In this document: positions 6,560 through 44,445 of the stretch, one piece after another
Position numbering within the stretch: position 1 is the first letter of the stretch
How the letters are laid out: each line of letters begins with the position of its first letter
Assembly (NCBI GenBank): GCA_031376505.1
Contig: JANMDX010000328.1
Coordinates: 1,044-65,043 of the forward strand
Direction of reading: 5' to 3'
DNA: 64,000 nucleotides
Source: Acidobacteriota bacterium
GTDB taxonomy: Bacteria; Acidobacteriota; Vicinamibacteria; Vicinamibacterales; UBA2999
The notes under the pieces: model-generated
Databases searched by the model: none
Seen by the model: only the letters and a program-made list of their open reading frames with translations
Told to the model about the DNA's origin: nothing
Made by a program: the position numbers and the translations under genes

Positions 6560-7330
6560 ATGCAGCTTGCCCTGCCTCTGATACCCGCTTCGTCCCTGCT
6601 CGAGGCCGCCACCACTCCGGTGTCGCAGCCCTCGAACCGGCCCTCGTTGCCGGGTGCTCAGGGGCCCCTGCCGCACGCGCCGCCCGAGATCGAGTTCGTC
6701 CGCCGGCGCGGCGCCCGTCGCTACATCCTGCGCGTGATGGACGACGGGACGTTGCGGGTGACGGTGCCGTGGTGGGGCAGCCGGCGGGAGGCCAGGCAGT
6801 TCGCCGAATCGCAGGAGGCCTGGGTCGCACGGCAGCGGGCTGCACGGTCGGCCCGCCCGGTGCTGCCGTGGGGCGCCGCCGGCGCCGTTCTCGTCGACGG
6901 CGTGCCGCACCATGTGACCGATCTCGGTGAAGGCCGCATGGCCCTCGGCGCACATGTCGTGGAGGCGTGCGTGGCGCCGGGCGGTGATCCCGGTGGCGCC
7001 GTGCGCGCCTGGCTGCGGGGGCGGGCCGTCACGCACTTGCCGGTCGAGTTGTCCGCGTTGGCCGAGCGTCACGCCATCGACGTGACGCGGATTGTGATTC
7101 GCGACCAGCGCTCACGCTGGGGGTCGTGCTCCAGGCGCGGCACGATCTCGCTCAACTGGCGCCTCGTGCAGACGCCGCCGTTCGTGCGAGAGTACGTGCT
7201 GTTGCACGAGTTGATGCACCGCCGCGAGCTGAATCACTCCGCGCGTTTCTGGCGCCTGGTGGCGGCCGCCTGTCCACGCCACGTCGACGCGCGACGCTGG
7301 CTGCGCGACGAAGGCGCGTTGCTGTTCTGA
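6560..7330 (+). CDS. YgjP-like M48/DUF45 zinc metallopeptidase
   Basis: RSRWGSCS...ISLNWRL and HELMHRRELNHSARFW (HExxH) are hallmark DUF45 motifs. Confidence 0.85.
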   Translation: MQLALPLIPASSLLEAATTPVSQPSNRPSLPGAQGPLPHAPPEIEFVRRRGARRYILRVMDDGTLRVTVPWWGSRREARQFAESQEAWVARQRAARSARPVLPWGAAGAVLVDGVPHHVTDLGEGRMALGAHVVEACVAPGGDPGGAVRAWLRGRAVTHLPVELSALAERHAIDVTRIVIRDQRSRWGSCSRRGTISLNWRLVQTPPFVREYVLLHELMHRRELNHSARFWRLVAAACPRHVDARRWLRDEGALLF

Positions 7331-7354: not shown

Positions 7355-8812
7355 TCAGCTGGTGCGGGGCGGCGTCGGGGCGGGGGCGGGCGTCTTGGTG
7401 GCGAAGCCTTTGCGCGTCATGGCGCCCCAATCGGAGCGGCCACGCATGTACTTCACGAGCCCGCGTAGCCGCCAGTAGACCGTCATCTGCCGGAAGCCGA
7501 GGTTCTCGGCAATGCTCCACCAGACGAGCCACGCCAGATCGCCAGGCCGTCGATAGCGCAAGAACGCCGTCTGGTCGAGCAGCAGCGTCGCCACGCTCAG
7601 AATCAGGCCGATGCCAATCGCCAAGGCGAAGAACAGGAGCGCGAACGTGCGGTCGATGAGACCCACGGCAAGCGAGGCCGCCAGAATGACGAGGCCCAAG
7701 GCCTCCACAATCGGCGCCAGCAGCTCCACCAGCACGAAGTAGGGAAACACGACCAGACCCATCGCGCCGTACGTCGGATTGCCGATCAGGCGCCGATGCC
7801 GCCACAGCGTGTCGGTGAGACCGCGGTGCCAGCGGTCACGCTGGCGGCCAAGCACCCCCCACGACTCCGGCACTTCCGTCCAGGCCGTAGGATCGGGTAC
7901 GAATACGACTTTGCTGGCCGTGCCGCGCTCGTAGCCGAGCCGTCGCAGTCGCACCACGAGTTCCATGTCCTCGCCGACCGTGTCGTGCAGCCAGCCGCCG
8001 GACGCGATCATCGGCTCGCGGCGGAACAGCCCGAACGCCCCGGAGATGATGAGGTTGCCGCCCAGACGGTTGAGGCCGAGGCGTCCCAGCAGGAACGCGC
8101 GCAGGTACTCGACCACCTGCACACCCGCCAGCAACGAGCGCGGCACCGTGACGTCGAGCACACGGCCGTTTTTGGTCTCGACGGCGTTCACCGGCCGGAT
8201 GGTGCCGCCGGTGGCCACCACGTTCGGGTCGATCATCATCGGCCGCACGAGACGCACGAGCGCGCCCCGCTCGATGAGCGTGTCGGCGTCAATCGCGCAC
8301 ACGAGGTCGCCGCTCGCCAGGTTCAAGCCCACGTTGAGCGCGTCAGCCTTGCCGCCGTTCAGTTTATCGACGACGACCAGATTGGCGTGGCGCGCCGAGC
8401 GGTAGAGCGCGACGACGCCTTTCGTGTGAACCCGCGCCGAATACGCCCGGTAGACCTCGACCAGAGCGAACTCCTGCGTCAGCACGGCCACGGTGGAGTC
8501 CTTGCAGCCGTCGGCAACCACCACGACCTCCAGATTCGGATAGTCGAGCGTGAGCAGCGACTGCACGCTGGCGGTAATGGTGGCCTCCTCGTTGTACGCC
8601 GGGGCCAGGATGCTGATGGTCGGCGCGAGCCGTGACCCGACCACGATGTGGTCGTTGATCCCGATGGCCTCGTTGCGCATGCGTCGCATCTCGAATACCG
8701 CGGCCACCAGCAGGCCCGTGTAGCAGACGTTGATGAGGCAGAAGTACACGAGCACGGCCGCTTCCACCGGTCCCATGACAGCCTCGACCGCCACGGCGAG
8801 GTACCACATCAT
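7355..8812 (-). CDS. processive family-2 glycosyltransferase (PgaC/IcaA/NodC-like membrane synthase)
   Basis: N-terminal TM segment, ILAPAYNEE, VVVADGCKDST, AIDADT and GRQRDRW (QxxRW), then several C-terminal TM helices. The start codon overlaps the upstream stop (ATGATGA at 8809-8812). Confidence 0.9.
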   Translation of the reverse strand: MMWYLAVAVEAVMGPVEAAVLVYFCLINVCYTGLLVAAVFEMRRMRNEAIGINDHIVVGSRLAPTISILAPAYNEEATITASVQSLLTLDYPNLEVVVVADGCKDSTVAVLTQEFALVEVYRAYSARVHTKGVVALYRSARHANLVVVDKLNGGKADALNVGLNLASGDLVCAIDADTLIERGALVRLVRPMMIDPNVVATGGTIRPVNAVETKNGRVLDVTVPRSLLAGVQVVEYLRAFLLGRLGLNRLGGNLIISGAFGLFRREPMIASGGWLHDTVGEDMELVVRLRRLGYERGTASKVVFVPDPTAWTEVPESWGVLGRQRDRWHRGLTDTLWRHRRLIGNPTYGAMGLVVFPYFVLVELLAPIVEALGLVILAASLAVGLIDRTFALLFFALAIGIGLILSVATLLLDQTAFLRYRRPGDLAWLVWWSIAENLGFRQMTVYWRLRGLVKYMRGRSDWGAMTRKGFATKTPAPAPTPPRTS

Positions 8813-9855
8813 GTCGACGCTCCCGCCGCTGCGAGGTCGAGCGCGTAGCGCGCGACGGCCGACGCCACCTGATCGTCCGAGTCGCGCAGCCGGCGCAGGT
8901 AGATCAGGCCCGGCGCGCCAAAGGCACGCAGGCAGAGTGCGGCCTGCCGTCGGACATCCCAGGCCGGATCGTGCAGCAACGCGGCCACCCGCGCCGCGGC
9001 GGGCCAGTGGCCGAGGCTCGCGAGCGCTCGCAGCGCCGCCTGCCGCACGGCGGGTTCGGCGTCGCCGAGCGCGCGCGCCACGAGGGCCACGCCATCAGCG
9101 CTGCCGAGCGCGCCGAGCAGGAGCACAGCGCGCGAGCGCACGTCGGCATGGGGCGAGGCCGCGAGGGTGCGGGCCGGCACGAGCAGGCGGGCATCGGCCA
9201 TCGTGAGCGCGACCTCGAGGGCGCCAAGCAAGCCCGCGTGGTCGGTGGTCGCGATGAAGGCGATGAGCGGCACGATGGCGTCGTGACCGAGGCGGACGAG
9301 CGTGTCTTGCGCGGCAAAGCGGCACCGGCCGTCGCGGTCGCCCAGCATCTGCATCAGCAGCTCGACGACGGCGGGCTCAGGCCGGTGGATGGCCCACTCC
9401 ACGGCCTGCGCGCGCACGCTGGCGTTGCGGTCGGCCAGGAGCGGAAGGACGACCGAGGCCGGGTGGCCGACCAGCGCGCACAGTTTGGCGCCGAACAGGC
9501 GGCGCGACCAGAACCAGCTGCGACACAGCTGCTCGGCCTTGCGGAGCAGGCCGGCCTGCTCCGCAAGCTGGCGCAGGGCCTGGCGCTCCGCGCCGGTCAA
9601 ATGCGGTGCCAGCTCGCCGAGCAGGTAGATCTGCAGGCGCATCGGCAACCGGACGAAGTCTCGAGTGAATCGGAGATGTCGCTCGCCTTCGGCCAACGCC
9701 TCGCGAAGGGCCGTGCGCACGGCGTCGAGCCGGCCCGCGCTCCACCGCTCGTACCACCACCACCACCAGGCATGCGCCACGAGCAACCCCACGCAGGTGG
9801 CCAGTGCCATGAACTCGGCGAAGAGCACCATCCGGACGAGCGCGTCAGGAGACAC
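8809..9855 (-). CDS. membrane-anchored HEAT-repeat protein
   Basis: N-terminal TM helix ending in AHAWWWWWYERW, followed by repeated D....VR..A...L HEAT/PBS-lyase-type units (ADRNASVRAQAV, DADVRSRAVLLLG, DAEPAVRQAALRAL, DPAWDVRRQAAL). GTG start at 9855 overlaps the upstream gene by 11 nt. Confidence 0.8.
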   Translation of the reverse strand: MSPDALVRMVLFAEFMALATCVGLLVAHAWWWWWYERWSAGRLDAVRTALREALAEGERHLRFTRDFVRLPMRLQIYLLGELAPHLTGAERQALRQLAEQAGLLRKAEQLCRSWFWSRRLFGAKLCALVGHPASVVLPLLADRNASVRAQAVEWAIHRPEPAVVELLMQMLGDRDGRCRFAAQDTLVRLGHDAIVPLIAFIATTDHAGLLGALEVALTMADARLLVPARTLAASPHADVRSRAVLLLGALGSADGVALVARALGDAEPAVRQAALRALASLGHWPAAARVAALLHDPAWDVRRQAALCLRAFGAPGLIYLRRLRDSDDQVASAVARYALDLAAAGAST

Positions 9856-12103
9856 TGGGCGACCCCGCCAGCGCGGAGCGCAGCCGGCGCATCAGCACGG
9901 GCAGGCTGACGGGCTTGGTGATGTAGTCGACGGCGCCGAGCTCCATTGCCTTGATCATCTCGGCTTCGACCGAGCGCGTCGTCACGACGACCGCCTTGGT
10001 GGTCCTAAGGACGCCAGCGACGGCGAGCTGACCGAGGAGCGAAAGGCCATCGAGGCCGGGCAGCCCCAGTTCCAGCACGATCAGCCGGGCGCGAATCGGC
10101 GTGTCCGGGTGGGTGAGCAGATCGAGGGCTTCGCGGCCGTCGCCGATCGTGCGCACGCGGTGGCCACGCGTCTCGAGGGCGTGTTCGACCAGTGCCGCAA
10201 ACGGCGCGTCGGCGTCGATCACGATGGCGTCGGCCGTCCAGTCGATGCGCGAGGTTTCGCCGCGCGTGACCGCCTCCACGCGATTGCCGCCGTGAACCTG
10301 TGCGGTCGAGAGCGCGCCTTCGGCGGCTCTGATGAGCGCATTCGCATCGGCGCCGTCCACGCGGATCTGCGCGATCCCTGCGCTGAACGACGCGGCGACC
10401 GTGGACTTGTCGGCCGCCTCGACGGACTGGTCGCGGAAGCCCTCGAGTAGTTCGGCCATTCGTTGCACGCCGTCGTCGGCCTTCATCCCGAAGGCGGCGA
10501 CCACGAATCGTCCAGGGGCGCCGTGCGTCACCAGGTCTTCGGAGCGAAAGGCCCGGCCCAGCCGGCGTCCGAGCAAGGCCGACAGACGCGCGGCCGATTC
10601 TCCGTCGCCCGCCGCGTGCAGCGCGGCGAGTCCATCCACTTCGGTGACCACGATTGAGAGCGCATGGTTGTAGCGGCGGGCGATGCTGACCATGCGTTCC
10701 ACCATCGACATGGCAGACCGCAGATAGGGTAGGCGCGTGGAGGGGTCGAGGTCGGCCGCGAGCCGCTGCGTGCGCCCGCGATCGAGGCGGTTGCGCACGA
10801 CCGCTGACAGCGAGCCACTCACGGCGGCGATCGGCACGCAGTCGTCTACTCCCGCGTCAGCGGCCCGCGCTGCGGTTGCAGCGTCGGCGTTCGCTGTGAG
10901 CAGCACGACGCTCATGGGCGCGACATCCCAGTCACGGCGCATTGCGCGCGGCACGTGCAGGGCGCTGCCGCCCGCCAGGGCTTCGTCGAGCACGCACAAC
11001 TCCGGGCGCGACTGCGTCGCCGCGTTCCAGACGCTTTCGGTGCTGTCGTGGACCTCGACGAACGCGCCCGCGCCGGCCAGCACGTCCAGCGTCGTCGCGC
11101 GGAGTGCCGCGTCAGCAATGCCCACCAGGATCACGGGCGCCGAGGCCTGTTGCCGGCGCAGCATGTCGATGGCCTCGTCGACGAGCGCCGCCGGCGCGAT
11201 CGGCTTGCAGAGTGTGCGCGTGGCCCGGATGGCGTGTGCTCCGGAGCGCTCCAGCACCGAGGGTCCTGAGGCAAGCGTGGCGACCGGCGCGTTCGGATGC
11301 GCGGCCAGCAGGCGGTTGCGGGCGACCGCGTCGGTCTCACCGACCAGGTCATGGCCGAGGACGATGACCGACGCGGGCTCGCCGAGGGGCTCATGGAGAT
11401 GGCGCAGCACCTTGGCGCGCCACCCCCGCACGGCCGCCTCAATGGGCAGTTCGCGCGCGAGCGTGTCGTCGTCATCGACGACGATTAGGAGCGGCGCGGC
11501 GGAACGGCCCGCAGGTGACAGCGCTTCGGGCGGCGGCAACGATCGCAGGGCGTGGTGCAGGCTCTCGACGATCTGTGAGAGGCGAAGCGCGTTGGCCGTG
11601 CCAAGCAGCGTTCCAGCGTCGAGCAGGCCCGCGGCTTCCCAGGCCTGGCGGGCCGCGTCGCGGGCTTCCACGAGCCAGAGCGACGTGGCCAGTTTGTAGG
11701 TGTCGCGAGCGGCCCGTCGACGGGGCGCGGCGTCGAGCCGGCCTTCGAGTGCCGCGAAGGCCGCGTCTTCGAGCGTCGCGGCACGGGCGGCGAGCGACGA
11801 AGTATAGGCGAGCCACACCAGCGTGGCCGACGCGTCGGCGGTCTCGGCCGAGGATGCTGGCACGGCGCGTGCGACGTCTGCGGCCGGGGCGCTGACGGTG
11901 GCCGGCGGGCCGGCTTCAGGTGACGTCGCGGGCCGGGGTTCAAGGCGGGCGGTCTGGACGACGGCATCGGAGCGCACCAGCACGTCGATGTCATCTCCCG
12001 ATTGTGGGGTGGCCACCGGCGTCGCCACTGACGTGCGTCCACCGGCGAAGCCAAGACGAAACGGCAGCCGAAGCGTCACGAGTGGCCGATCACCCAGTCC
12101 CAT
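9845..12103 (-). CDS. multi-domain signalling protein: helical N-terminal region, two degenerate receiver-like domains, a degenerate GGDEF domain and a C-terminal receiver
   Basis: Receiver-like segments at about aa 204-316 (LLIVVDDDD...LCKPI) and aa 322-440 (CVLDEAL...VVLLTAN). GGDEF fold at about aa 452-612, with RSED-LVTHG-APGRF where RxxD-x5-GGDEF is expected. Receiver at aa 626-742 (IVIDADAP...IVLELGLPGLDG...VVVTT...ITKP). N-terminal start not verified. Confidence 0.8.
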   Translation of the reverse strand: MGLGDRPLVTLRLPFRLGFAGGRTSVATPVATPQSGDDIDVLVRSDAVVQTARLEPRPATSPEAGPPATVSAPAADVARAVPASSAETADASATLVWLAYTSSLAARAATLEDAAFAALEGRLDAAPRRRAARDTYKLATSLWLVEARDAARQAWEAAGLLDAGTLLGTANALRLSQIVESLHHALRSLPPPEALSPAGRSAAPLLIVVDDDDTLARELPIEAAVRGWRAKVLRHLHEPLGEPASVIVLGHDLVGETDAVARNRLLAAHPNAPVATLASGPSVLERSGAHAIRATRTLCKPIAPAALVDEAIDMLRRQQASAPVILVGIADAALRATTLDVLAGAGAFVEVHDSTESVWNAATQSRPELCVLDEALAGGSALHVPRAMRRDWDVAPMSVVLLTANADAATAARAADAGVDDCVPIAAVSGSLSAVVRNRLDRGRTQRLAADLDPSTRLPYLRSAMSMVERMVSIARRYNHALSIVVTEVDGLAALHAAGDGESAARLSALLGRRLGRAFRSEDLVTHGAPGRFVVAAFGMKADDGVQRMAELLEGFRDQSVEAADKSTVAASFSAGIAQIRVDGADANALIRAAEGALSTAQVHGGNRVEAVTRGETSRIDWTADAIVIDADAPFAALVEHALETRGHRVRTIGDGREALDLLTHPDTPIRARLIVLELGLPGLDGLSLLGQLAVAGVLRTTKAVVVTTRSVEAEMIKAMELGAVDYITKPVSLPVLMRRLRSALAGSPSVS

Positions 12104-12305: not shown

Positions 12306-13649
12306 ATGTACCTGACACCACGGACTAGCGCTCTCATTGTGGGTGTTTCGGCTGGGTGGCTGTTGGCAAGCGGCGTGTACACAGGCCAAGCGCCGCCGCC
12401 GGCGTCGCTGCCCCCCCAGCAGATGCCGCTGCTGCAAGGCGGCGATCTTCGCTACCTGGGGCAGTTTACGCTTCCGAACAAGGACGGTGACGGCACGCTG
12501 CTGACCTGGGGCGGCACGGCGCTGAGCATGGGTGCCGATGGCGTGTCGTTGTATTTCGGTTGCCTCTACGGTACGAGGGTCGCGCGCGTCAGCATTCCGA
12601 GCGTGGGCGGAGTCGGTACGGTGCTCGAGCCGTGCCGGGGGGTCCCGAACCTGAATGCCATCAACCCCAACGATCCCAACGCCAAGCTGCTTGGCGGCGT
12701 GCTGGCGTGGAACGGCCGCCTGATTCTGTCGGGGTTTGCGTACTACGACGGTGGCGGCACGGCGACGACCAGTCACTTCGTGGGCGCGGCGATTGCCACG
12801 GCGTCAGGGCCCTACAAGGTGGGCACCGAGCAGCCGGGGTTGGTGGCGGGCTACATGGGCGTCGTTCCGACCGAGTGGCGCACGCTGCTTGGAGGGCCGG
12901 CGCTGACGGGCCAGTGCTGCATTGCGATCATCTCGCGGTCGAGCTACGGGCCTTCGGTGAGCGTGTTCGACCCGGCAGACATCGGTACTCGATCGCCCGT
13001 GCCAGCCACGATGCTGGTGGGCTATCCCGAGGCGCATCAGACGGTTGGCACGTATGAAGGTCCGGGGCCGCTCTACAACGGCTCGACGAAGATGGGCGGC
13101 GTCGCGTTTCCGGCGGGCACACGGTCCGTGCTGTTTGTGGGCCGCCAGGGCGGCGCGTTCTGCTACGGCGAGGGCACGTCGACGCCTTCGCTCCACGGCA
13201 AGCCCGTGCCCGATACCGATGGCGCGGTGGCCTATTGCTACGATGAGACCAACAGTGACAAGGGAGGACACGGGTTCCCGTATCGGCATCAGGTGTGGGC
13301 ATATGACGCCGTCGACCTGCTGGCGGTACGGCAGAAGAAGAAGTCGCCCTGGGACGTGCGTCCGTACACGACCTGGACGCTCACCGAGATGAGCGGAGGC
13401 GTCGGCACGGCATCGATGCGCGGCGCCGCCTACGACCCGCAGACGCGCCGGTGGTACATGACCCAGGAGACCGAAGGCGGTAGCCCGACGGTGCACGTTT
13501 ACGAGGTGCGTGTCGGCGCGTCTTTGTCCGGCCCGCCGGGGAACGCGCTCCTCGCATTCGGCGGCGTCCTTTCTGCAATCCCGGGCGGGAACACGAAGGT
13601 GGCCGTTGCACAGCTGCCGGTCATTCCTGAAGGGGCGAGGGAACGATGA
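12306..13649 (+). CDS. secreted or anchored protein of unknown function, paralogue A
   Basis: Hydrophobic N-terminus (ALIVGVSAGWLLASGVY). Collinear with the first ~390 aa of the next gene. AGAGGGG lies 6 nt before the ATG. The stop overlaps the next start (ATGA at 13646-13649). Confidence 0.8.
   Translation: MYLTPRTSALIVGVSAGWLLASGVYTGQAPPPASLPPQQMPLLQGGDLRYLGQFTLPNKDGDGTLLTWGGTALSMGADGVSLYFGCLYGTRVARVSIPSVGGVGTVLEPCRGVPNLNAINPNDPNAKLLGGVLAWNGRLILSGFAYYDGGGTATTSHFVGAAIATASGPYKVGTEQPGLVAGYMGVVPTEWRTLLGGPALTGQCCIAIISRSSYGPSVSVFDPADIGTRSPVPATMLVGYPEAHQTVGTYEGPGPLYNGSTKMGGVAFPAGTRSVLFVGRQGGAFCYGEGTSTPSLHGKPVPDTDGAVAYCYDETNSDKGGHGFPYRHQVWAYDAVDLLAVRQKKKSPWDVRPYTTWTLTEMSGGVGTASMRGAAYDPQTRRWYMTQETEGGSPTVHVYEVRVGASLSGPPGNALLAFGGVLSAIPGGNTKVAVAQLPVIPEGARER
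12624..13169 (+). repeat. near-identical 546-nt tract, copy 1 (inside paralogue A)
   Basis: Matches 13913..14458 at a constant offset of 1289 nt, with only scattered substitutions visible by eye. The flanking parts of the two genes are much more diverged. Confidence 0.9.
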
Positions 13650-16030
13650 CGCGGATCGCAGTCCTGGCGGTGCTGTGTCTGTCCGCATCGACCGTCGCAG
13701 CGCAGACGACGCTGCCTAGGGTCCAGCCGGGCAATCTGCAGTACCAGGGGCAGTTCACGCTGCCGAACGACGACGGCAACGGCACACTCCTGACCTACGG
13801 CGGCACCGCACTCAGCATGGGCGCAGACGGCACGTCGCTGTACTACGGCTGCGTCTATGGCGCCGCCGTGGTGCGGGTGCGGATTCCCGCCATCGGCGAT
13901 GTCGCTACCCAACTCGAGCCGTGCCGGGGCGTCCCGAACCTGAATGCCATCAACCCGAACGATCCCAACGCCAAGCTGCTTGGCGGCGTGCTGGCGTGGA
14001 ACGGCCGCCTGATTCTGTCGGGGTTTGCGTACTACGACGGCGGCGGCACGGCGACGACCAGTCACTTCGCGGGTGCCGCGATTGCCACGGCATCCGGCCC
14101 CTACAAGGTGGGCACCGAACAGCCGGGGCTGGTGGCGGGCTACATGGGCGTCGTTCCGACCGAGTGGCGCACGCTGCTTGGAGGCCCGGCGCTGACGGGC
14201 CAGTGCTGCATTGCGATCATCTCGCGGTCGAGCTACGGGCCTTCGGTAAGCGTGTTCGACCCGGCAGACATCGGTACTCGATCGCCCGTGCCAGCCACGA
14301 TGCTGGTGGGCCATCCCGAGGCGCATCAGACGATTGGCACGTATGAAGGTCCGGGGCCGCTCTACAACGGCTCGACGAAGATGGGCGGCGTGGCGTTTCC
14401 GGCGGGCACACGGTCCGTGCTGTTTGTGGGCCGCCAGGGCGGCGCGTTCTGCTACGGCGCCGGCACGTCCGATCCGTCGCTGCATCGGAAGCCGAATCCG
14501 GCCGGTGACGTCTGGTGCTACGACCCGACCAACAGCGACAAGGGCGGGCATGGGTACCCGTATCGGCATCAGGTGTGGGCGTATGACGCCGTCGACCTGC
14601 TGGCGGTGAAGCAGGGCGCCCAGCAGCCGTGGGACGTGCGTCCGTATGCGACGTGGACCCTGACCGACATGGACAACGCGGGCAGCGCCACGATTCGCGG
14701 CGCCACCTACGACCCGGCGACGCGGCGGCTCTATGTCACCGCCGACACGGCAGGCGCGACGCCCACCGTGCACGTCTACGAGATCACCAACGCCGTACTG
14801 CCCGACCCCGCGCCGGCGGTTGAGATCTGCGGTGACGGTATCGACAACGACGGCGATGGCCTCATTGACGAGGACTGCGCGCCGAGCCAGTCAGGCCAGC
14901 CGTCTTGGGGAGGGCGGCGGCTGCTCGCGGCCAGCGGCGTGACGAAGGCGACCGTGGCGGCCTGTGGCGACGACGTGCATGTGGCACACGGCAATTCCGC
15001 TCTCTACTACCGACGCTCATCGTCCAGTGGCGACGCCTGGACCGATTGGCAGTTGCTCGGGGATGGCGCCATTCTGTCTGGCCATGCCCTCGCATGCGAC
15101 GGCTCCGCGGTGGTGTTGACGGCACACCGAGGACTCCGTGAGGTTCGTGACTGGCAGGGCACGCGTCAGGTGGGCGACCTCTGGGCCTGGGTCAGCGACG
15201 ACGCCGGCAGCGCGTGGCGCGCGCCCTTCAGGTTATCGACCAGCGCCTCGGCCGGCCAGAGCGCGACGGCGATTGAGGGCGACCGGGTGGCGGTGGCTTG
15301 GATGGAACTGCGCGGCCAGTCGCCCGGAGCGTGGGATCTGCATTACCGCGAGTCGTTTGATCGCGGGCGCACGTGGACTGCCGATGGTCCCCTCGTCGTC
15401 GGCGACACCGCGGCGGGCGCGGCGTGGCCCAGCGTGGGAATTGGGGGCGGAATTGCCTATCTGGCCTGGATCGATGCACGCGTCGGCAACGGGTCCTGCT
15501 CGGACGGGACGAGTATCGACGGTGCCTGTGCCAGCATCTTGGCGCGACGGCTCGCTGGCGGCGCCTGGTCATCGGACGTTCGGCTAGGCGGCGCCACCCC
15601 CGGCGCGGGCGCGCCCGCGGTCGTCGCGACCGCAGCCTCGAGCGAGGTTGTGTATCCACTGAACGGCGACCGAGGTCCAGGCATCGTCGTCACGCAGTCT
15701 ACAGATCAGGGAGTCACGTGGATAGGGCTTCGCGGGCTCGACGTGCGAGAGCCTGGCGCCGCAGCTGCCACGGCGGCCGTCGCGCCGTCTGTGCTCGCGA
15801 TTGGATGGCAGGCAGCGCGTGCCGGACGGAGCCAGACGGTCCTGCGGGTTTCGGTCGATGGCGGGGCCGGTTGGGGCGTCGAGGAGTTGCCATTTCCAGA
15901 AGCGACGTCGGCGCCACACATCACGGCAGCCAGGCGCTACCTGCACGTGGTGGCGACCGGACTCGACGGCACACTGCTCTACGCACGCCGATCAGCCGGG
16001 GCTGGGGACTCAGGACCAGAGAAAAGGTAA
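13646..16030 (+). CDS. secreted protein, paralogue B, with a C-terminal BNR/Asp-box (sialidase-like propeller) region
   Basis: Signal peptide MTRIAVLAVLCLSASTVAAQ. The N-terminal ~390 aa are paralogous to 12306..13649. Contains CGDGIDNDGDGLIDEDC and Asp-boxes SDDAGSAW, SFDRGRTW, STDQGVTW, SVDGGAGW. Confidence 0.85.
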   Translation: MTRIAVLAVLCLSASTVAAQTTLPRVQPGNLQYQGQFTLPNDDGNGTLLTYGGTALSMGADGTSLYYGCVYGAAVVRVRIPAIGDVATQLEPCRGVPNLNAINPNDPNAKLLGGVLAWNGRLILSGFAYYDGGGTATTSHFAGAAIATASGPYKVGTEQPGLVAGYMGVVPTEWRTLLGGPALTGQCCIAIISRSSYGPSVSVFDPADIGTRSPVPATMLVGHPEAHQTIGTYEGPGPLYNGSTKMGGVAFPAGTRSVLFVGRQGGAFCYGAGTSDPSLHRKPNPAGDVWCYDPTNSDKGGHGYPYRHQVWAYDAVDLLAVKQGAQQPWDVRPYATWTLTDMDNAGSATIRGATYDPATRRLYVTADTAGATPTVHVYEITNAVLPDPAPAVEICGDGIDNDGDGLIDEDCAPSQSGQPSWGGRRLLAASGVTKATVAACGDDVHVAHGNSALYYRRSSSSGDAWTDWQLLGDGAILSGHALACDGSAVVLTAHRGLREVRDWQGTRQVGDLWAWVSDDAGSAWRAPFRLSTSASAGQSATAIEGDRVAVAWMELRGQSPGAWDLHYRESFDRGRTWTADGPLVVGDTAAGAAWPSVGIGGGIAYLAWIDARVGNGSCSDGTSIDGACASILARRLAGGAWSSDVRLGGATPGAGAPAVVATAASSEVVYPLNGDRGPGIVVTQSTDQGVTWIGLRGLDVREPGAAAATAAVAPSVLAIGWQAARAGRSQTVLRVSVDGGAGWGVEELPFPEATSAPHITAARRYLHVVATGLDGTLLYARRSAGAGDSGPEKR
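13913..14458 (+). repeat. near-identical 546-nt tract, copy 2 (inside paralogue B)
   Basis: Direct repeat of 12624..13169, in frame in both genes (LEPCRGVPNLNAINPNDPNAKLLGG...GRQGGAFCYG). Confidence 0.9.
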
Positions 16031-16118
16031 TGGTGCCGGCGGAGGGAATCGAACCCACACGCCCTTTGGGGACACGGGATTTTGAGTCCCGCGCGTCTGC
16101 CAGTTCCGCCACGCCGGC
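16031..16118 (-). tRNA. tRNA-Leu (anticodon CAA), CCA encoded
   Basis: Reverse complement GCCGGCG-TG-GCGGAACTGGCAGACGC-GCGGGA-CTCAAAA-TCCCG-long variable arm-GTGGGTTCGATTCCCTC-CGCCGGC-A-CCA. It has a 7-bp acceptor stem, anticodon loop CT-CAA-AA, a class II variable arm and a TTCGATT T-loop, with one U-U mismatch in the T stem. Confidence 0.9.
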
Positions 16119-16160: not shown

Positions 16161-18584
16161 CTACTCGGGACGCCACACGAGGGCGACGAGTTGTACCTGC
16201 ACGCCGCCGCGCTTGGGCTTCACCACCACTCGGGCGCACGTCTCCGCAGCGTCATTCCACGCGTGCTGGACGGCCTGCAGCTCCGCGTCGAGCGTGTCGG
16301 CCAGCGCCTGGCGCTGCGCGGCCAGCGCGTCCTCGTTGGCCTTGGCGCGTGCGACGTCCTGAGTTTCCCGGCCGATGCGACCGACGCCGCGAGCGGCGGT
16401 CGTGGCGCGGCCGAGCGTGGCGACACTTGCCGCCTTGCGCCCGAAAATCGCCCCGAGCACGGTGGCGCCCACCGACATGGCCGTCGAGAGCTTCTGCTCC
16501 GACGCCTGCTGTTCTTCCCGCTGCACGGCGGCGCCTGCCTTGCGGATTTTCTCGTCGAGGGCGGCTAGCTTTGGTGCGTACTTGTCGCGCAGTATCGCGA
16601 CGGCCTCGTCGCGCGCCTCGCGCCGGGCGTGCGTGACCCGCGCCTGGAAGTCGCCGTCGCGCTCGCCCGGACGCGACACGACCCTTGTGCCTGGCGACTG
16701 CAGCAGCTCCACGCTTTGGGACCGGCCAGCCCATGATGCGAAATCCTTGGTCCACGTGACGTAGCTCTTGGGTTTTGCGGCCGGCGGCGGCAACGCGGCA
16801 AACGTCCCTCCGGACGCGGGCTCGCGCAGCAGTGCGTCCACGCCGAACGAGGCCGGCTCGGCGTGCTCCCAATCGGCTGCGACGGGTCCCTCGGTCAGTG
16901 GCGTCCACACGAGGATGTCGCTGGTCTCGTCGAGCCCGAGCTTGGCATCGACATACGACATGCGGGCCGCGCCCACGAGCATCGGCACCCACGAGGAGCC
17001 GGCGCCGGGCGCGAAGTACTGCGGCACGTCGGGCGGCACGATCGGCCGCGCCGCGGGCGTGGGTGGCGTCGCCGGACCAGCCGCTGCGGCCGGCGCCAGT
17101 TGAGGGGCGGGTGCGGAGATCCCCGGCGCCGGAGTCTGGGGCGCAGCGATCGCGGCGGCGTCCTTCTGCGGGGCCATCAGAGCGCGAATCTCGTCGCGTC
17201 CCATCGGCCCGCGCAGATATGACATCGACCACCGTGTCTGCAGCAGGACGGGCGCCGACTCGTGCACGTTGTGCAGCAGGAACACCCGCTTGTCGAGTCC
17301 CGAAAGAAGCGAGTCGAGGCTCTGGCGGTCGAACCCGCGGCCCGAACCAGACGCCACGCCTTCGAGGCCGTCGAGCACCCGCGCCTTGTCGCGCTCGGTC
17401 TGCAGACGGCCGAGGAACCACGTGCCGGCGTTGGCGAGCGCCTTGTAGTCGAGGTCCACGGGGTTCTGCGTGGAGAGCACGCAGCCGAGTCCGAAGGCGC
17501 GCGCCTGCTTCAGCAGCGTGAGCAAAGGCACTTTGCTCGGGGGATTGGCGGTCGGCGGCAGGAAGCCGAAGAGCTCGTCCATGTACAGCACGGCGCGCAG
17601 GGACGTCGTGCCGCGCTGTGCGCGCACCCAGGCGAGCACCTGCTCGAGGAGCAGAGCCACGAAGAACATGCGCTCGGCATCGCCGAGGTGGGCAATCGAG
17701 ACGACCGCGACGCGCGGCTTGCCGGTCGGGCCATACAGCATCCGCCCCACGTCAAGCGGTTCGCCTTCGAGCCACGTCGCGAATCCGGGCGCGGCCAGGA
17801 CGTTGTTGAGCCGCATCGCCAGGCCGAAGCGATCGTTGGCCGGATAGAACGACTCGAGGTCGAGCACGCCCACCTTGGTAACCGGGGGCGACTGCACCTG
17901 ACTGATGAGCGTCGGCAGATCGAGGTTACGGCCGGCGCGCCACGCCTCCTGCAGCAGTGTGGACACGAGTACGTGTTCGCGGCTGGTCGTCGGGTCGCTC
18001 GTGACGCCGGCCAGCGAGAGCAGACTGGTGGCGACTGACTGCACGCGCGCGGCCAGCAACTCGGGCTCGTCGGCCACGACCTTCGGTGGCGCGTTGAAGG
18101 TCTCGAGGATCGAGAGTGGCAGTCCGGAGCGGCTCCCAGGCGTGTAGACCGACACGTCGGCGGCGGCCTTGAGACGGCGGATCCGGTCGCCGTCCTGCCC
18201 CCACTCGGCCAGGCCGTTCTTCCAGCGCTCTGCCTCCTTTGCCGCGAACTGCTCGGTCGTGATCTGGTGCGCGCGGGCCTCGTCTGGATTCACCCACGGT
18301 GCGAACTCCTGCGCCGAGAGTCCAGGGAAGGTGAGCATCAGATTCGCGAGGTCACCCTTTGGATCGATCGCCAGTACGGGCAGGCCATCGATGGCGGCCT
18401 CTTCGATGAGCGTGATGCCAAGGCCGGTCTTGCCGCTGCCGGTCATGCCGATGCATACGGCGTGGGTCAGCAAGTCGGCCGAGTCGTAGAGCACCGGTTC
18501 GCTGGTGCGCTGTCGTGTGGCCGGGTCGTAGCGTCGACCAAGGTAGAAGAGTCCGAGCTGTTCGACGTCCATGGTACCCGGCAT
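16161..18584 (-). CDS. HerA/FtsK-superfamily P-loop NTPase (DUF87/DUF853-like) with a long C-terminal coiled-coil and Gly-rich region
   Basis: Track ORF trimmed to ATG 18584; the 260 upstream codons are Arg-rich and overlap the upstream gene. Walker A GMTGSGKTGLG, then PVLAIDPKGDL. Walker B AVLYMDELFGF. C-terminal LSTAMSVGATVLGAIFGRKAASVATLGRATTAARGVG tail. Confidence 0.85.
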   Translation of the reverse strand: MPGTMDVEQLGLFYLGRRYDPATRQRTSEPVLYDSADLLTHAVCIGMTGSGKTGLGITLIEEAAIDGLPVLAIDPKGDLANLMLTFPGLSAQEFAPWVNPDEARAHQITTEQFAAKEAERWKNGLAEWGQDGDRIRRLKAAADVSVYTPGSRSGLPLSILETFNAPPKVVADEPELLAARVQSVATSLLSLAGVTSDPTTSREHVLVSTLLQEAWRAGRNLDLPTLISQVQSPPVTKVGVLDLESFYPANDRFGLAMRLNNVLAAPGFATWLEGEPLDVGRMLYGPTGKPRVAVVSIAHLGDAERMFFVALLLEQVLAWVRAQRGTTSLRAVLYMDELFGFLPPTANPPSKVPLLTLLKQARAFGLGCVLSTQNPVDLDYKALANAGTWFLGRLQTERDKARVLDGLEGVASGSGRGFDRQSLDSLLSGLDKRVFLLHNVHESAPVLLQTRWSMSYLRGPMGRDEIRALMAPQKDAAAIAAPQTPAPGISAPAPQLAPAAAAGPATPPTPAARPIVPPDVPQYFAPGAGSSWVPMLVGAARMSYVDAKLGLDETSDILVWTPLTEGPVAADWEHAEPASFGVDALLREPASGGTFAALPPPAAKPKSYVTWTKDFASWAGRSQSVELLQSPGTRVVSRPGERDGDFQARVTHARREARDEAVAILRDKYAPKLAALDEKIRKAGAAVQREEQQASEQKLSTAMSVGATVLGAIFGRKAASVATLGRATTAARGVGRIGRETQDVARAKANEDALAAQRQALADTLDAELQAVQHAWNDAAETCARVVVKPKRGGVQVQLVALVWRPE

Positions 18585-18595
18585 TCTACCGGCCT

Positions 18596-20413
18596 TCACA
18601 CCTCGAGGCCCACCGATCGCATCAGCGCGAGGGCATTGCTCGTGCCGACGACGCCCGCGCGCAGGTGGTAATCGAATTCGAGTCCGCCCTGTTCGAGGCG
18701 GTCGGCGAAATGCATGTTGGCGGCGCGCGGCGCCAGTGCGCCGGCCAGATCGGTCAGCGCCAGGTCGTGGGTCGTGGCCATGCCGATGGCGCCGAGGGCG
18801 AGCAGGCCTCGCAGCACCCCCTCGGCGCCCTGGCGTCGGTCGTGTGAGTTGGTGCCGGACAGCAGTTCGTCGATGAGGAAGAGGGTGGCCGGTGCGCCGG
18901 CGTGTGCCCCGCGCGCCTGCTCCACGATCTGTCGCAGCTTGGTGATCTCGGCGAAGAAGCGGGAGCGGCCCGACTGCAGTGAATCCTGCACGCGCAGGGT
19001 GCCGGCCGGCATCAGCGGCGACAGCGTCATCTCGAGGGCGCAGACCGGCGCGCCGGCCTGCGCTAGGACCACGTTGACGCCCACGGCGCGCAGCCACGTG
19101 CTCTTCCCCGACATGTTCGAGCCGCTGACGATGACGAGGTGCGGCGCCTCCCCGCCAAGCGCGAGGTCGTTGCTCACGGCCGTGCCGACGGGCAACAGCG
19201 GATGGGTGAGTCCGCGCGCCAGAATCCGTGGCGCGCCCTCGACGAAGGTTGGAAAGACCGCGTCGGGATGCTCCGCCGCATAGGTGCCCAGGGCGGCCAT
19301 CGCCTCGAGTTCGCCCAGCGCAGCCGTCCAGTCGGGTATGAAGCGACCAGCGCGCTCGCGCCACCGGTCCACGGCCCAGGCCAGCTGCGTGGCCCAGAAC
19401 AGCAGGACTGAAATCGGCCCGAAGATCTGATTCTGGCGCGACGTCAGCAGCTCGACAAGACGAGTCAGACGCTGGATCTCGCGCGAGGCCGGCAGCCCAC
19501 TAGCGGCGAGCCGTCGCTGCACCTCCTGGAGCGCTGGCGCGTCGAAGGACTCAGCCTCGATGCGGGCGATGAGAGCCGCGGCGAGCGCCAGGTCCCTAGC
19601 CCGTGGTTCGACCTCGCGGATGACCCTCACGACGCGGCGCCGAAGCCCCCAGCCGGTGAGCGCCTGGAGCGCGACAAGCCCGCCCAGCCACAGCGGCGGC
19701 TCGCCGCTGGCGATCCACAGGCCGACACTGACCATCGTAGCGCCTGATAGCAGGCCCAGGGCAATCGGTGCCCAAAGGGGCACTGTGCTCGTGCGGGCGC
19801 TGGCCCATGCGCCAAGCGCGGCTGTCGCCGCCGCGTGCGGCATGTCGGGCCCGAGCACTGCCAGGTCCTCGCGCAGAGCGTCTCGCGTCGCCAGGTCGGT
19901 CGTCGCCGCCTGGCGAGCGCGTACGGCCTCTGGCGGGGCCGGATGCACCAGCCACCCGGCCAGCGTGGCGTAGCCGGCCTCGGTGCGCGGCGTCGACAGC
20001 AAGTCGAAGAGACTGGCGGGTCCGAAGAGGTCGAGGTCGTCGGCGTAGGGATGCTCGGGTGGCACGAACTGCTGGCCGGTCGCGCCTCGCCCGTGCCAGC
20101 GATCCTCGAGTCGTGCAATGCCGTCGTCCACGTATGCGAGGACGCGGCGCACGCGGGCCTGGGCCGCAAGCAGCCGGGCATGCGTCACGGCAAGGCCGAG
20201 AAAGAGCAACGCCGGCAGCACAAGCCAGAGCGGCGCAAGGTGACGGGTGCCAAACGCGAGCACCGCGATCACCGCGGCCGTGCCCGCGACCGCCAGACGC
20301 AGATTAGCGAGGCGGTGGTGGCGGGCGTCGAGGGCGGCGCCGTCGGCGCTCAGCCGATCCCTCCGGCCCGCGTAGGCGGCGGCTACGGCCGTACGATGCC
20401 GTCGGTGGTCCAC
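18596..20413 (-). CDS. membrane-embedded MutS-related protein (MutS domain III/V ATPase, no mismatch-binding or Smr domain seen)
   Basis: C-terminal MutS ABC ATPase: VIVSGSNMSGKSTWLRAVG (Walker A), FLIDELLSGTNSHDR (Walker B), ATTHD. Hydrophobic helices lie in the N-terminal half. Proposed GTG start at 20413 (VDHRRHRTAVAAAYAGRRDRL...), overlapping the upstream stop by 31 nt; start uncertain. Confidence 0.8.
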   Translation of the reverse strand: MDHRRHRTAVAAAYAGRRDRLSADGAALDARHHRLANLRLAVAGTAAVIAVLAFGTRHLAPLWLVLPALLFLGLAVTHARLLAAQARVRRVLAYVDDGIARLEDRWHGRGATGQQFVPPEHPYADDLDLFGPASLFDLLSTPRTEAGYATLAGWLVHPAPPEAVRARQAATTDLATRDALREDLAVLGPDMPHAAATAALGAWASARTSTVPLWAPIALGLLSGATMVSVGLWIASGEPPLWLGGLVALQALTGWGLRRRVVRVIREVEPRARDLALAAALIARIEAESFDAPALQEVQRRLAASGLPASREIQRLTRLVELLTSRQNQIFGPISVLLFWATQLAWAVDRWRERAGRFIPDWTAALGELEAMAALGTYAAEHPDAVFPTFVEGAPRILARGLTHPLLPVGTAVSNDLALGGEAPHLVIVSGSNMSGKSTWLRAVGVNVVLAQAGAPVCALEMTLSPLMPAGTLRVQDSLQSGRSRFFAEITKLRQIVEQARGAHAGAPATLFLIDELLSGTNSHDRRQGAEGVLRGLLALGAIGMATTHDLALTDLAGALAPRAANMHFADRLEQGGLEFDYHLRAGVVGTSNALALMRSVGLEV

Positions 20414-20976
20414 AGATACAGCGTGCGGCGATGGTTCGAGGTGTCGGTGAAGGTCTCGACCTTCTCCGGCGCCCAGTCGCCGAAACCGAAGTTGTGCGCC
20501 ACGATGCGCGTACCGGGCTTGAGGGCCCGCGTGAGGATCGGCCGCAGTCTCAAGTTCGAGGCCGTGAGCAGGTACGTGGTGACGACCGTCGCTGACGACA
20601 CGTCGGTCGTGAGCGCGTTCTCGAGTTTGAAGGTGACCAGACGCGACACGCCCTCGCGGGCGGCATTGGCGTTCGCCTCTGCGATGCGCTGCGGATCGAT
20701 GTCGACCCCGATGCCGCGCGCGCCGTACACTCTGGCCGCGGTAATCGGAATGCGCCCGTCGCCGCATCCCAGATCCATGACCACGTCAGCTTTCGTGACC
20801 CTGGCGAGCGTCAGCATGCGGTCCACGACCTCTTGCGGCGTCGGGACGTAGGGCGCCAGCTTCGGCGCGATGAGGCGTGCAGTGCCCGCCGGGGCTGCTT
20901 GGCGGCTGGCCTCGAGCAACGGCGCGACGAGTGCCAGGCCGAGCGCGAAGACGACCCCGGTTGCTGCACGCCGCAT
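20383..20976 (-). CDS. class I SAM-dependent methyltransferase with an N-terminal signal or anchor sequence
   Basis: Trimmed to ATG 20976: MRRAATGVVFALGLALVAPLLEAS, then YVPTPQEVVDRML...VVMDLGCGDGRIPITAA (motif I) and GIGVDID. Confidence 0.8.
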   Translation of the reverse strand: MRRAATGVVFALGLALVAPLLEASRQAAPAGTARLIAPKLAPYVPTPQEVVDRMLTLARVTKADVVMDLGCGDGRIPITAARVYGARGIGVDIDPQRIAEANANAAREGVSRLVTFKLENALTTDVSSATVVTTYLLTASNLRLRPILTRALKPGTRIVAHNFGFGDWAPEKVETFTDTSNHRRTLYLWTTDGIVRP

Positions 20977-24072: not shown

Positions 24073-24858
24073 TCATAAGCCCTTCGCGGCGCTTCGGCTA
24101 CCAATCAAGGATAGAGCCGCAAGCCCGTGGCGCGCCGCGCGGAGGACCCGCCGTCGGCTCACGCGGCGCCGGAATGCCGCCGTGCCCCAGTCCACGAGCG
24201 CTTCCGGTGCCTGAAAATAGTACATGTCGATCCTTGGCACCAGGTGTCGAAGGTCGTCGCCGGAGAACGCCCGGTACTCGGTCGTGCACGCCACGTCGAA
24301 AAGCGAGACGGCGGTTGCGGCCACATCGGGCGACACGTCGCCGTAAGGGTATGCAAACGCACTAACCGGCACGCCGAGCCGGTTGCACAGGTCTTGCTGC
24401 CCGCCCTCCATTTCGGCGCGGGCGCCGGAGGCCGTCATCGCCGGCAGGTGCGGGTGCGTGCGGGAGTGCGCACCGATCGTGGCGCCCGTCGAGGCGCAGT
24501 CGCCCGCCTCGTCCCACGACATCAGCGGCAGCACCGGAATGCCGGGCACGCGCCGTCCCCCCCAGACGTTGGTGCCCCCCACATGGCCGCTCACCAGGAA
24601 GACCGTGACCGGCAGGCCGGCATCTCGAAGGCGCGGCCACGCCGCCGCGGAGAAATTCGCGAAGCCGTCGTCGAAAGTGAGGGCCACCCGGTGCGGCGGA
24701 CCGTCGCTGGCGTCGGTTGCCTGCACCAGCGTGTCGAGCGGCTCGACCGTGACGTCGCCGCTCGTGAGCCACTCGACGTGCCGTGCGAAGGCCTCGAGCG
24801 ACACCGAAATGGGCGAGCCCGAGTCGTCGATCGAGTGATAGGTCAGCACCGCGCGCAT
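24073..24858 (-). CDS. polysaccharide deacetylase (NodB homology / CE4)
   Basis: LTFDDG motif, IGAHSRTHPHL His motif, and YPYG. Confidence 0.9.
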   Translation of the reverse strand: MRAVLTYHSIDDSGSPISVSLEAFARHVEWLTSGDVTVEPLDTLVQATDASDGPPHRVALTFDDGFANFSAAAWPRLRDAGLPVTVFLVSGHVGGTNVWGGRRVPGIPVLPLMSWDEAGDCASTGATIGAHSRTHPHLPAMTASGARAEMEGGQQDLCNRLGVPVSAFAYPYGDVSPDVAATAVSLFDVACTTEYRAFSGDDLRHLVPRIDMYYFQAPEALVDWGTAAFRRRVSRRRVLRAARHGLAALSLIGSRSAAKGL

Positions 24859-24861
24859 CGC

Positions 24862-39446: not shown

Positions 39447-39450
<4 letters not shown>
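38371..39450 (+). CDS. acyltransferase family 3 integral membrane protein
   Basis: LDGLRAVSVVAV, HLFFVLSGFLIT and HFWSLAVEEQFYLLWP. Start is uncertain (GTG 38371 or TTG 38359). Confidence 0.8.
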
Positions 39451-40875
<1,425 letters not shown>

Positions 40876-40892
<17 letters not shown>

Positions 40893-44197: not shown

Positions 44198-44445
44198 TGT
44201 CGTGTGAACGCTGAGGGAGAATCGTACCACACGGCTCTGTGCAACCGTGGGCTATAGGAGGGCGGCTGGCTGCCGACACCGCGCAATCTGCGCAGTGCTG
44301 GGACGTGCCACGACGGCGTCGCGCCGCGATCGGCGATTGCGTCCGACCTGCGCGTACCCCAGACGCCGTTCGGGTCGTCGCGCGAAGGCACGCGGCGTGG
44401 TGTTGACTCCAGACGACACGGGTTGTCGGAGGGCGCCCGGCGCCG

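Follow-up and report, generated by a model that had tools for sequence, protein, structure and literature searches.

A HEAT-repeat protein, a family 2 glycosyltransferase and a degenerate-GGDEF regulator encoded by an operon of Acidobacteriota: a putative synthase-dependent glycan system with relatives in many phyla

The control of synthase-dependent polysaccharide formation is, to our knowledge, understood from a few paradigms (Bcs, Pga, Alg, Pel, Pss, Nfr). Enzymes of the hyaluronan synthase (HAS)/PgaC/chitin synthase type polymerise a UDP-sugar and pass the growing chain through their own transmembrane channel, and the activity of E. coli PgaCD depends on cyclic di-GMP (c-di-GMP). PelD of the Pel system, PssE of the Listeria Pss system and YdaK of the Bacillus ydaJ-N operon carry GGDEF domains that lack the active site but keep an RxxD motif; they are encoded beside a polysaccharide glycosyltransferase and activate it post-translationally when they bind c-di-GMP. 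BcsE, which consists of degenerate REC and GGDEF modules, uses the RxxD I-site of its GIL domain to bind c-di-GMP, and the single-pass protein BcsF brings it to the synthase. Helical-repeat partners are also on record, since PelE is a membrane-anchored protein of this kind and fungal Chs3 owes its activation to Chs4/Skt5, a protein built from helical repeats, which offers a functional analogy to the solenoid partner described below. Here, we analysed a three-gene operon that encodes a family 2 glycosyltransferase (GT2), a HEAT-repeat membrane protein and a multi-domain regulator. It lies in a stretch of 64,000 nucleotides from an Acidobacteriota bacterium (GenBank assembly GCA_031376505.1, contig JANMDX010000328.1, positions 1,044 to 65,043), which is called the window throughout.

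We interpret this operon as a synthase-dependent glycan machine consisting of the GT2, its HEAT partner and a regulator that is a predicted c-di-GMP receptor in the window, and we regard this interpretation as on balance probable. The window has a G+C content of about 69%, and its closest protein matches belong to Vicinamibacterales and to other Acidobacteriota. All three open reading frames (ORFs) are located on the minus strand and show a coding-type G+C pattern over the codon positions. They are flanked by a convergent YgjP-like gene (6560-7330, plus strand) and by a divergent gene of unassigned function (12306-13649, plus strand), so that the unit comprises three genes. The ORF borders and the two gene overlaps that an initial annotation of the window had reported were confirmed exactly in the sequence. 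The longer overlap depends on a GTG start of the HEAT gene, for which an in-frame alternative ATG is present at 9831.

9845-12103, minus strand: regulator of 752 amino acids, Hpt-like–REC1–REC2–GGDEF-like–REC3 (Pfam, NCBIfam, family hidden Markov models)
8809-9855, minus strand: HEAT-repeat membrane protein of 348 amino acids with a transmembrane helix, a stalk helix and about eight HEAT-like repeats, predicted to be cytoplasmic (Pfam, hydropathy, AlphaFold2)
7355-8812, minus strand: predicted processive membrane GT2 synthase of 485 amino acids (Pfam, NCBIfam, invariant motifs, AlphaFold2 model, Foldseek)
9845-9855, minus strand: 11-nucleotide overlap of the regulator stop TGA (9845-9847) with the GTG start of the HEAT gene (9853-9855) (sequence)
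8809-8812, minus strand: ATGA overlap of the HEAT stop with the GT2 start, indicating translational coupling (sequence)

A scan of one genome per species yielded at least 595 matching stretches and the best 80 loci were taken into comparison. Represented among these 80 are Acidobacteriota, Binatia, Gemmatimonadota, Nitrospirota, Chloroflexota, Actinomycetota, Vulcanimicrobiota, Cloacimonadota, Bacteroidota/Balneolales, Rhodothermales and Myxococcota; cultured members of the Actinomycetota are found in Arthrobacter, Pseudarthrobacter, Solirubrobacter, Patulibacter, Knoellia and Frankia. When homologues of the GT2 and of the HEAT protein were looked up, the same triad was recovered in Binatia, in Gemmatimonadaceae and on one unclassified contig. 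Thus, the neighbourhood is kept well outside the close relatives of the source organism, and a chance arrangement is unlikely because the same gene order recurs in dozens of unrelated genomes. When the two core genes were followed, we found the HEAT gene directly upstream of the GT2 gene in all 86 loci inspected, which represent more than ten phyla (82 detected by phmmer, four by Pfam). A four-nucleotide stop/start overlap (A/G/TTGA) connects the two genes in 60 of 83 non-redundant loci and most of the others have a gap of 14 nucleotides or less. The lengths of both proteins are almost constant (344-352 amino acids for most HEAT proteins, 472-490 for most GT2s), and the core pair is the same in monoderm and diderm phyla. 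Since the HEAT gene invariably lies just upstream of the GT2 gene and is translationally coupled to it, the gene order strongly indicates that the HEAT protein would be an obligate partner of the GT2. When the HEAT protein was used as a profile on 1.84 billion cluster representatives, 6069 proteins matched at E ≤ 1e-30, giant repeat proteins among them; the best 150 matches were mostly full-length proteins of about 350 amino acids aligned in a single stretch and belonging to distinct 50%-identity clusters. One apparent natural fusion of HEAT_2 and GT2 (P0028) was discarded, since its stretches are out of frame and point to an assembly or frameshift artefact.

The HEAT protein contains a single hydrophobic segment, as had been proposed from the sequence (residues 9-27; 9775-9831, minus strand; N-terminal transmembrane helix by hydropathy). 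Positively charged residues follow this segment and therefore the HEAT repeats should be cytoplasmic. Pfam HEAT_2 matches the protein in three stretches, and its AlphaFold2 model (predicted local distance difference test, pLDDT, 91) consists of a helix from residue 3 to 56 followed by about eight helical repeats, so that the assignment as single-pass HEAT-repeat protein was borne out. Foldseek searches with this model retrieved only generic alpha-solenoids (designed alphaRep, armadillo, PP2A-type proteins), which offer no functional clue. No NCBIfam model fits the protein and the database names of GT2 and HEAT homologues are generic only. A possible MshEN-like c-di-GMP motif in the HEAT protein (W116-x-R-R-L-x-G) was rejected because its spacing does not fit.

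For the GT2, Pfam returned Glyco_tranf_2_3 (86 bits), Glycos_transf_2 (70 bits), Glyco_trans_2_3 and a partial Chitin_synth_2 match. D175-A-D177, G280-E-D282 and Q324-R-D-R-W328 are invariant among 44 homologues, and so is the C-terminal W462-G...R467-x-G-F470, which sits in a low-confidence tail of the model.

8282-8290, minus strand: DAD motif
7961-7975, minus strand: GEDME motif
7829-7843, minus strand: QRDRW motif
7403-7429, minus strand: C-terminal WG...R.GF motif

In the AlphaFold2 model (pLDDT 80.7, predicted TM-score 0.81), an N-terminal helix (2-49) precedes a GT-A core and four long C-terminal helices (346-456). When this model was compared with known structures over its full length, the best Foldseek matches were the hyaluronan synthases of Chlorella virus and Xenopus (E about 1e-15, TM-score about 0.6), followed by PcManGT, BcsA, plant CesA and chitin synthases including Chs1; the matches from the hyaluronan synthases to Chs1 ranged from E 1e-15 to 1e-10. 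The DxD, GED and QxxRW motifs that mark the superfamily of processive membrane GT2s (BcsA/HAS/CHS/PgaC/NodC) are present in the sequence, and the transmembrane helices that would form the channel are a prediction of the model. Together, motifs and model strongly indicate an enzyme of the HAS/PgaC/chitin synthase type, that is a predicted channel-forming processive synthase. The description of the gene product as a PgaC/IcaA/BcsA-style synthase with DxD, QRDRW and transmembrane helices at both ends was therefore upheld by Pfam, by the alignment of the 44 homologues and by the model. The C-terminal WG...R.GF motif may resemble the WGTR-type loop of hyaluronan and chitin synthases; a profile search against PDB sequences left this region unaligned to hyaluronan synthase. 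NfrB was rejected as a closer relative than PgaC, because its similarity to the GT2 was not significant (E 0.012).

The best curated family for the GT2 is PgaC_IcaA (TIGR03937, E 1e-38) and the protein shares 24% identity with E. coli PgaC (E 8e-27). As is established, PgaC needs a small membrane partner and c-di-GMP, a dependence that the enzyme studied here may share. These data could mean that the operon is a divergent poly-N-acetylglucosamine (PNAG; pga/ica) system or a hyaluronan/chitin-type system, known in principle, in which the only novelty is a HEAT protein that takes the place of PgaD/IcaD. We consider this distinctly unlikely. With 133 bits, the PgaC_IcaA score does not come near the equivalog cut-off of 422 bits, the score on the CelA model (TIGR03030) is 56 bits against a cut-off of 699, and none of the curated NCBIfam equivalog cut-offs was reached. 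Moreover, the GT2 carries two family-specific insertions and the invariant WG...R.GF tail, all of which are absent from E. coli PgaC, and neither the HEAT partner nor the regulator is related to any Pga or Ica protein. Genes for PgaA, PgaB/IcaB and PgaD/IcaD are not co-encoded, and Pfam scans of 23 window ORFs detected no PilZ, PgaA/B/D, BcsB/Z or Wza/Wzc, so that the PilZ domain and the BcsB partner of a Bcs cellulose synthase are missing as well. Both the expected absence of the usual exopolysaccharide (EPS) partners within 64 kb and the lack of a match to an already characterised EPS operon thus proved correct.

Additional genes accompany the core pair in other lineages. A conserved protein of about 520 amino acids without Pfam match is encoded directly downstream of the GT2 in Nitrospirota and Binatia and shares 40% identity between these phyla; in locus L062, it shares the reading frame of the GT2 ORF, perhaps through a fusion or a missed stop codon. 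A TPR protein with a YaiO-type beta-barrel, expected in the outer membrane, is found near the HEAT–GT2 pair in Nitrospirota, Binatia, Balneolales, some Gemmatimonadota and Myxococcota. By analogy with PgaA, BcsC or NfrA, this protein is plausibly a candidate export porin.

L001:4433-6013, L071:8252-9976, L062:8381-9961, L015:8445-9773: protein of about 520 amino acids
L062:9958-11268, L078:8566-9882, L001:10652-11401, L032:8293-9204, L082:8506-9861: TPR/YaiO proteins

Neither of the two proteins is encoded in the 64-kb window. The initial annotation had called the synthase an orphan, and this holds for the window but not for those lineages in which the TPR/YaiO protein and the 520-residue protein are added.

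This distribution bears on the fate of the product, which might not be a secreted EPS but a cell-bound or periplasmic glycan, a NodC-like oligosaccharide or a glycolipid head group, with the operon serving envelope remodelling. No exporter, hydrolase or modifying enzyme was found near the window operon, the core pair does not differ between monoderm and diderm phyla, and Pfam reports a weak Glyco_transf_21 match for the GT2, all of which would suit such a product. However, the fold of the full-length GT2 model is that of channel-forming polymer synthases, QxxRW and GED are invariant, and TPR plus beta-barrel proteins lie directly downstream of the GT2 in loci of Nitrospirota, Balneolales, Gemmatimonadota and Myxococcota. 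We therefore judge a non-secreted product to be unlikely.

The regulator contains neither a DNA-binding nor a transmembrane domain, and its domain structure in the window is as follows:

11555-11818, minus strand: Hpt-like four-helix domain, residues 96-183 (family model 71 bits; BLASTP)
11681-11701, minus strand: Tyr136 at the position of the phospho-accepting His, in TYKLATS
11174-11485, minus strand: REC1, residues 207-310, degenerate pseudo-receiver (family model 46 bits; BLASTP against REC1 of locus L041, E 4e-4)
10808-11125, minus strand: REC2, residues 327-432, acceptor Asp kept (CVLDEAL), conserved Lys lost (Pfam Response_reg 35 bits, about 333-423)
10277-10798, minus strand: GGDEF-like domain, residues 436-609 (Pfam GGDEF 25.3 bits, 450-608)
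10535-10546, minus strand: retained I-site RSED (R520-S-E-D523), five residues upstream of the A-site
10505-10519, minus strand: A-site APGRF (residues 529-533) in place of GG[DE]EF
9884-10225, minus strand: REC3, residues 627-740, the most conserved domain of the regulator (Pfam 63 bits, 627-741)
10058-10078, minus strand: Glu678 at the REC3 acceptor position, in VLELGLP; conserved Thr and Lys kept

The Pfam score of the GGDEF-like domain is barely above the cut-off of 23.8 bits, and the family model gives 179 bits for the same domain. In a PDB alignment (E 1e-4), RSED...APGRF of the window stands opposite RRSD...GGDEF of the Thermotoga cyclase 4URS. The domain thus combines a GGDEF fold, the loss of GG[DE]EF and a kept RxxD, which are the sequence features of degenerate-GGDEF I-site receptors. 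On the PleD model NF007135, the regulator aligns over residues 317-611 with 70.5 bits against a cut-off of 474. Pfam Hpt does not match the window regulator, but BLASTP relates its Hpt-like domain to the Pfam-positive Hpt of an Arthrobacter homologue (L040; 41% identity, E 1e-11); despite this homology, the phospho-accepting His is replaced by Tyr136. REC1, which is degenerate in the entire family, has no Pfam match and was seen only with the family model and by BLASTP. In REC3, Glu678 replaces the acceptor Asp of a phospho-accepting receiver. The initial annotation had described receiver-like domains around a GGDEF fold that lost GGDEF but kept RxxD; three REC domains and both features of the GGDEF fold were recovered, but the Hpt-like domain had been missed. 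The first 95 or so codons (11819-12103) are rich in Ala and Pro and share 32-34% identity with close relatives. This part is weakly constrained (ratio of nonsynonymous to synonymous substitution rates, dN/dS, 0.5-0.9) and may be a disordered tail, a remnant of an additional N-terminal receiver (REC0) or sequence upstream of the true start.

Among the relatives, the architecture (REC0)–Hpt–REC1–REC2–GGDEF–REC3, or a shortened form of it, is present in 62 of the 65 loci that have a co-directional upstream ORF, and Pfam finds Hpt, REC and GGDEF in regulators of several phyla. Residues were counted in 59 non-redundant regulators. A GGDEF domain occurs in 52 of them; its I-site RxxD is kept in 49 and its active site GG[DE]EF is intact in 16 of these 52 domains. 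Because the I-site outlasts the active site, the comparison favours c-di-GMP binding as the conserved role that this domain would have. Fifty-one of the 59 regulators have an Hpt domain (His kept in 32), the REC2 acceptor is Asp in 47, and the acceptor position of REC3 is occupied by Asp (44), Glu (11) or Gly (3). The window clade is characterized by APGRF or SPGRF at the A-site, Glu as REC3 acceptor and loss of the conserved REC2 Lys. The exchange of the Hpt His for Tyr is found in the window itself; the relatives L006, L007 and L011 keep the His.

A hybrid histidine kinase (CHASE3/PAS–HisKA–HATPase–REC) is encoded co-directionally just upstream of the regulator in 10 of the 48 loci with enough sequence, and about five further loci have an adjacent kinase on the opposite strand.

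L035:229-2808, L036:359-3148, L040:731-3922, L068:557-3421, L076:409-3543, L075:981-3149: hybrid kinases upstream of the regulator

One of these kinases carries its own Hpt. In L036 and L076, the two loci scanned for it, kinase and regulator are separated by a gene for a single-domain REC, so that some lineages have a five-gene cassette of kinase, single-domain REC, regulator, HEAT protein and GT2. The Hpt His is kept in all seven kinase-adjacent loci with a scored Hpt. No hybrid kinase is located next to the operon in the window. The proposal of a phosphorelay-like input therefore stands in part: because hybrid kinases adjoin the regulator in relatives, a live phosphorelay is supported, at the family level only, whereas in the window this input looks vestigial from the residues present (Tyr for the Hpt His, Glu for the REC3 acceptor, no conserved Lys in REC2).

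To quantify constraint, dN/dS was computed against the three relatives L006, L007 and L011. The overall value for the regulator is 0.26. The lowest values were obtained for the Hpt-like domain (0.06-0.10) and REC3 (0.08-0.11), followed by the GGDEF-like domain (0.20), REC1 (0.22-0.29) and REC2 (0.37-0.43). All regulator domains are under purifying selection. This bears on the idea that the operon of the window no longer functions and is the decaying remnant of a full kinase–regulator–synthase cassette, as its lost catalytic and phospho-acceptor residues and the missing kinase and porin might suggest. But the three ORFs are intact with their overlaps preserved, dN/dS is well under 1 in every domain, and APGRF/SPGRF as well as the Glu acceptor are common to relatives at a synonymous divergence of about 0.8-1.0. 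We consider a remnant highly improbable.

For the operon as a glycan machine, we propose the following mechanism. The HEAT protein and the GT2 would form a membrane complex in which the transmembrane helix of the HEAT protein packs against the synthase. The cytoplasmic solenoid would serve as a docking platform for the regulator, most likely via REC3 and/or the Hpt-like domain, because these are the constant and most constrained regulator parts. As a DNA-binding domain is missing, the regulator probably exerts its effect at the post-translational level. Ancestrally, a hybrid histidine kinase might feed the Hpt and REC domains and thereby switch on a PleD-like diguanylate cyclase beside the synthase. 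In the window, this circuit appears to be decayed, with Tyr for the Hpt His, APGRF for GGDEF and Glu for Asp in the last REC, and the RxxD I-site kept in the GGDEF-like domain most likely makes the regulator a c-di-GMP receptor. REC3 would be locked in a phosphomimetic-like state and provide a constant contact to the HEAT–GT2 pair, and polymer synthesis would be licensed by c-di-GMP made at other sites in the cell. For the polymer itself, a beta-linked chain with N-acetylglucosamine (GlcNAc) is probable. A bolder version assigns the HEAT protein to a new class of obligatory synthase co-subunits, which, anchored in the membrane next to the HAS-like GT2, would relay the state of the bound REC/GGDEF regulator (phosphorylated or c-di-GMP-loaded) to the WG...R.GF loop of the GT2 and in this way gate polymerisation of an uncharacterised GlcNAc-containing polymer; this version is possible, although we find it doubtful.

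Several observations weigh against the proposed c-di-GMP-controlled glycan machine. Loci of Bacteroidota, Balneolales and Rhodothermales have the HEAT–GT2 pair without the regulator. The GGDEF domain is absent from 7 of the 59 regulators, for instance from an Arthrobacter protein with the architecture Hpt-REC-REC-REC, and c-di-GMP can therefore not be essential to the core HEAT–GT2 mechanism. Within 64 kb, there is no outer-membrane exporter, periplasmic partner, hydrolase or cyclase, and the host is presumably diderm. An Rfam scan of the window did not find a c-di-GMP riboswitch, a tRNA being the only RNA match. Finally, the sugar named above is a guess from resemblance only.

The GGDEF-less variants favour the main rival explanation, according to which c-di-GMP is irrelevant and control is exerted purely by protein contacts of the Hpt-like domain and REC3, the I-site being a leftover of ancestral product inhibition. 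Such contacts would be phospho-dependent in relatives and constitutive in the window through the Asp→Glu exchange. The strong constraint on exactly these two domains (dN/dS 0.06-0.11) is in line with this explanation, and the shortest regulators (L020, L050, L066) have kept only Hpt–REC, a form that occurs in Chloroflexota. On the other hand, an I-site present in 49 of 52 domains, 36 of which have lost the active site, is hard to call a fossil, and in the window clade the GGDEF-like domain is itself under purifying selection. We rate the irrelevance of c-di-GMP as improbable and retain the receptor function as the preferred interpretation. The term c-di-GMP-gated, which the initial annotation had used, is thus backed by the persistence of the I-site but does not apply family-wide, because about one-third of the GGDEF domains are catalytically intact and seven regulators have none.

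The neighbourhood of the operon shows additional features. The divergent gene next to the regulator (12306-13649, plus strand) and the adjacent gene at 13646-16030 (plus strand) are tandem paralogues with about 83% identity over some 360 amino acids; the former has no Pfam match and the latter only a weak BNR_2 match. Two long ORFs at 16161-19364 and 18596-20767 (both minus strand) overlap, so that one start is probably mis-set. One of them ends in MutS_V and the other has weak HerA/DUF87 P-loop matches; the tRNA gene (16034-16118, minus strand) is located just downstream of this pair. About 12 kb from the operon and on the same strand, the only Polysacc_deac_1 gene of the window (24073-24861, minus strand) is paired with a GT4 gene (24862-26202, minus strand). 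Other envelope-glycan genes of the window encode three PMT_2/GT-C-like membrane proteins (30225-31913, plus strand; 39447-41216, minus strand; 57463-59025, plus strand), a soluble-type GT2 (43238-44251, minus strand) and an Acyl_transf_3 protein (38107-39450, plus strand).

A search of the full-text literature available without subscription retrieved no published description of the HEAT–GT2–regulator module. A published account of Actinoplanes EPS clusters was considered as prior description and set aside as unrelated to the triad. In line with the earlier proposal that a HEAT co-subunit lies outside the described synthase systems, the HEAT-repeat co-subunit, the Hpt–REC–REC–GGDEF–REC regulator and the graded decay of this regulator appear to be undescribed. 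The module appears to be one more widespread paradigm of synthase-dependent polysaccharide systems, and it occurs mainly in phyla of soil and wastewater that are abundant but rarely cultivated and the matrix polymers of which are hardly characterised. If the HEAT protein is indeed a gating co-subunit, the polymer could frequently contribute to the matrix in Acidobacteriota, Gemmatimonadota, Nitrospirota and soil Actinomycetota. The regulator series, at one end of which stands an active circuit of kinase, Hpt, REC and cyclase and at the other a catalytically dead I-site protein, makes the evolution of a receptor from a cyclase testable, and cultured carriers of the module are available (Pseudarthrobacter sp. 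L19, Arthrobacter sp. C9C5, Knoellia locipacati, Solirubrobacter soli, Patulibacter americanus, Gracilimonas sp. Q87).

When the operon is compared with described systems, PgaCD/IcaAD is the nearest curated sequence family and likewise combines a GT2 with a co-encoded membrane partner. However, this partner is a HEAT solenoid of 348 amino acids here and not a small protein such as PgaD/IcaD, the PgaB deacetylase and the PgaA porin are lacking, and the reading of c-di-GMP would fall to a separate protein of several domains. Class I hyaluronan synthases, chitin synthases and NodC provide the best structural matches and have a similar layout (about 480-570 amino acids, GT domain flanked by transmembrane helices). 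They share only 15-18% identity with the GT2, and they have neither an operon with a HEAT partner nor a c-di-GMP/REC regulator.

On the regulator side, PelD, PssE and YdaK resemble the window protein in that their GGDEF fold has no active site, RxxD is kept and the gene lies beside a glycosyltransferase. In contrast to these membrane proteins (GAF–GGDEF or TM–GGDEF), the window regulator is soluble, carries an Hpt-like and three REC domains, and has its anchor in the separate HEAT protein. The Pel glycosyltransferase PelF is a GT4 and not a channel-forming GT2. PleD and WspR have the same REC–REC–GGDEF core with I-site, and relatives with intact GG[DE]EF and adjacent hybrid kinase probably work as these proteins do. 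The window regulator differs from them by its missing active site, by the N-terminal Hpt-like and C-terminal REC domains that it adds, and by its tie to a synthase operon.

In E. coli, the NfrB–NfrA–YbcH system with DgcJ consists of a GT2 under a local dedicated cyclase and of two partners, a periplasmic protein and an outer-membrane protein with TPRs and a beta-barrel (PMC8669469). The extended cassettes of Nitrospirota, Binatia and Balneolales are similar, but an MshEN domain is missing in the module and the window has no outer-membrane or periplasmic genes. The logic of BcsE–BcsF matches that of the regulator and the single-pass HEAT protein, although a sequence relationship is not detectable, the window is devoid of BcsQ/R, BcsB and PilZ, and the HEAT protein is much larger than BcsF. 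By analogy, the combination of a GT2 synthase with a membrane partner and a degenerate-GGDEF receptor follows a logic that is already familiar from PgaCD, PssC/PssE, PelD/E/F and BcsE/BcsF, although the operon departs from each of these systems in its sequences or its partners. The module is thus not categorically new and belongs with the c-di-GMP/phosphorelay-controlled synthase-dependent glycan systems.

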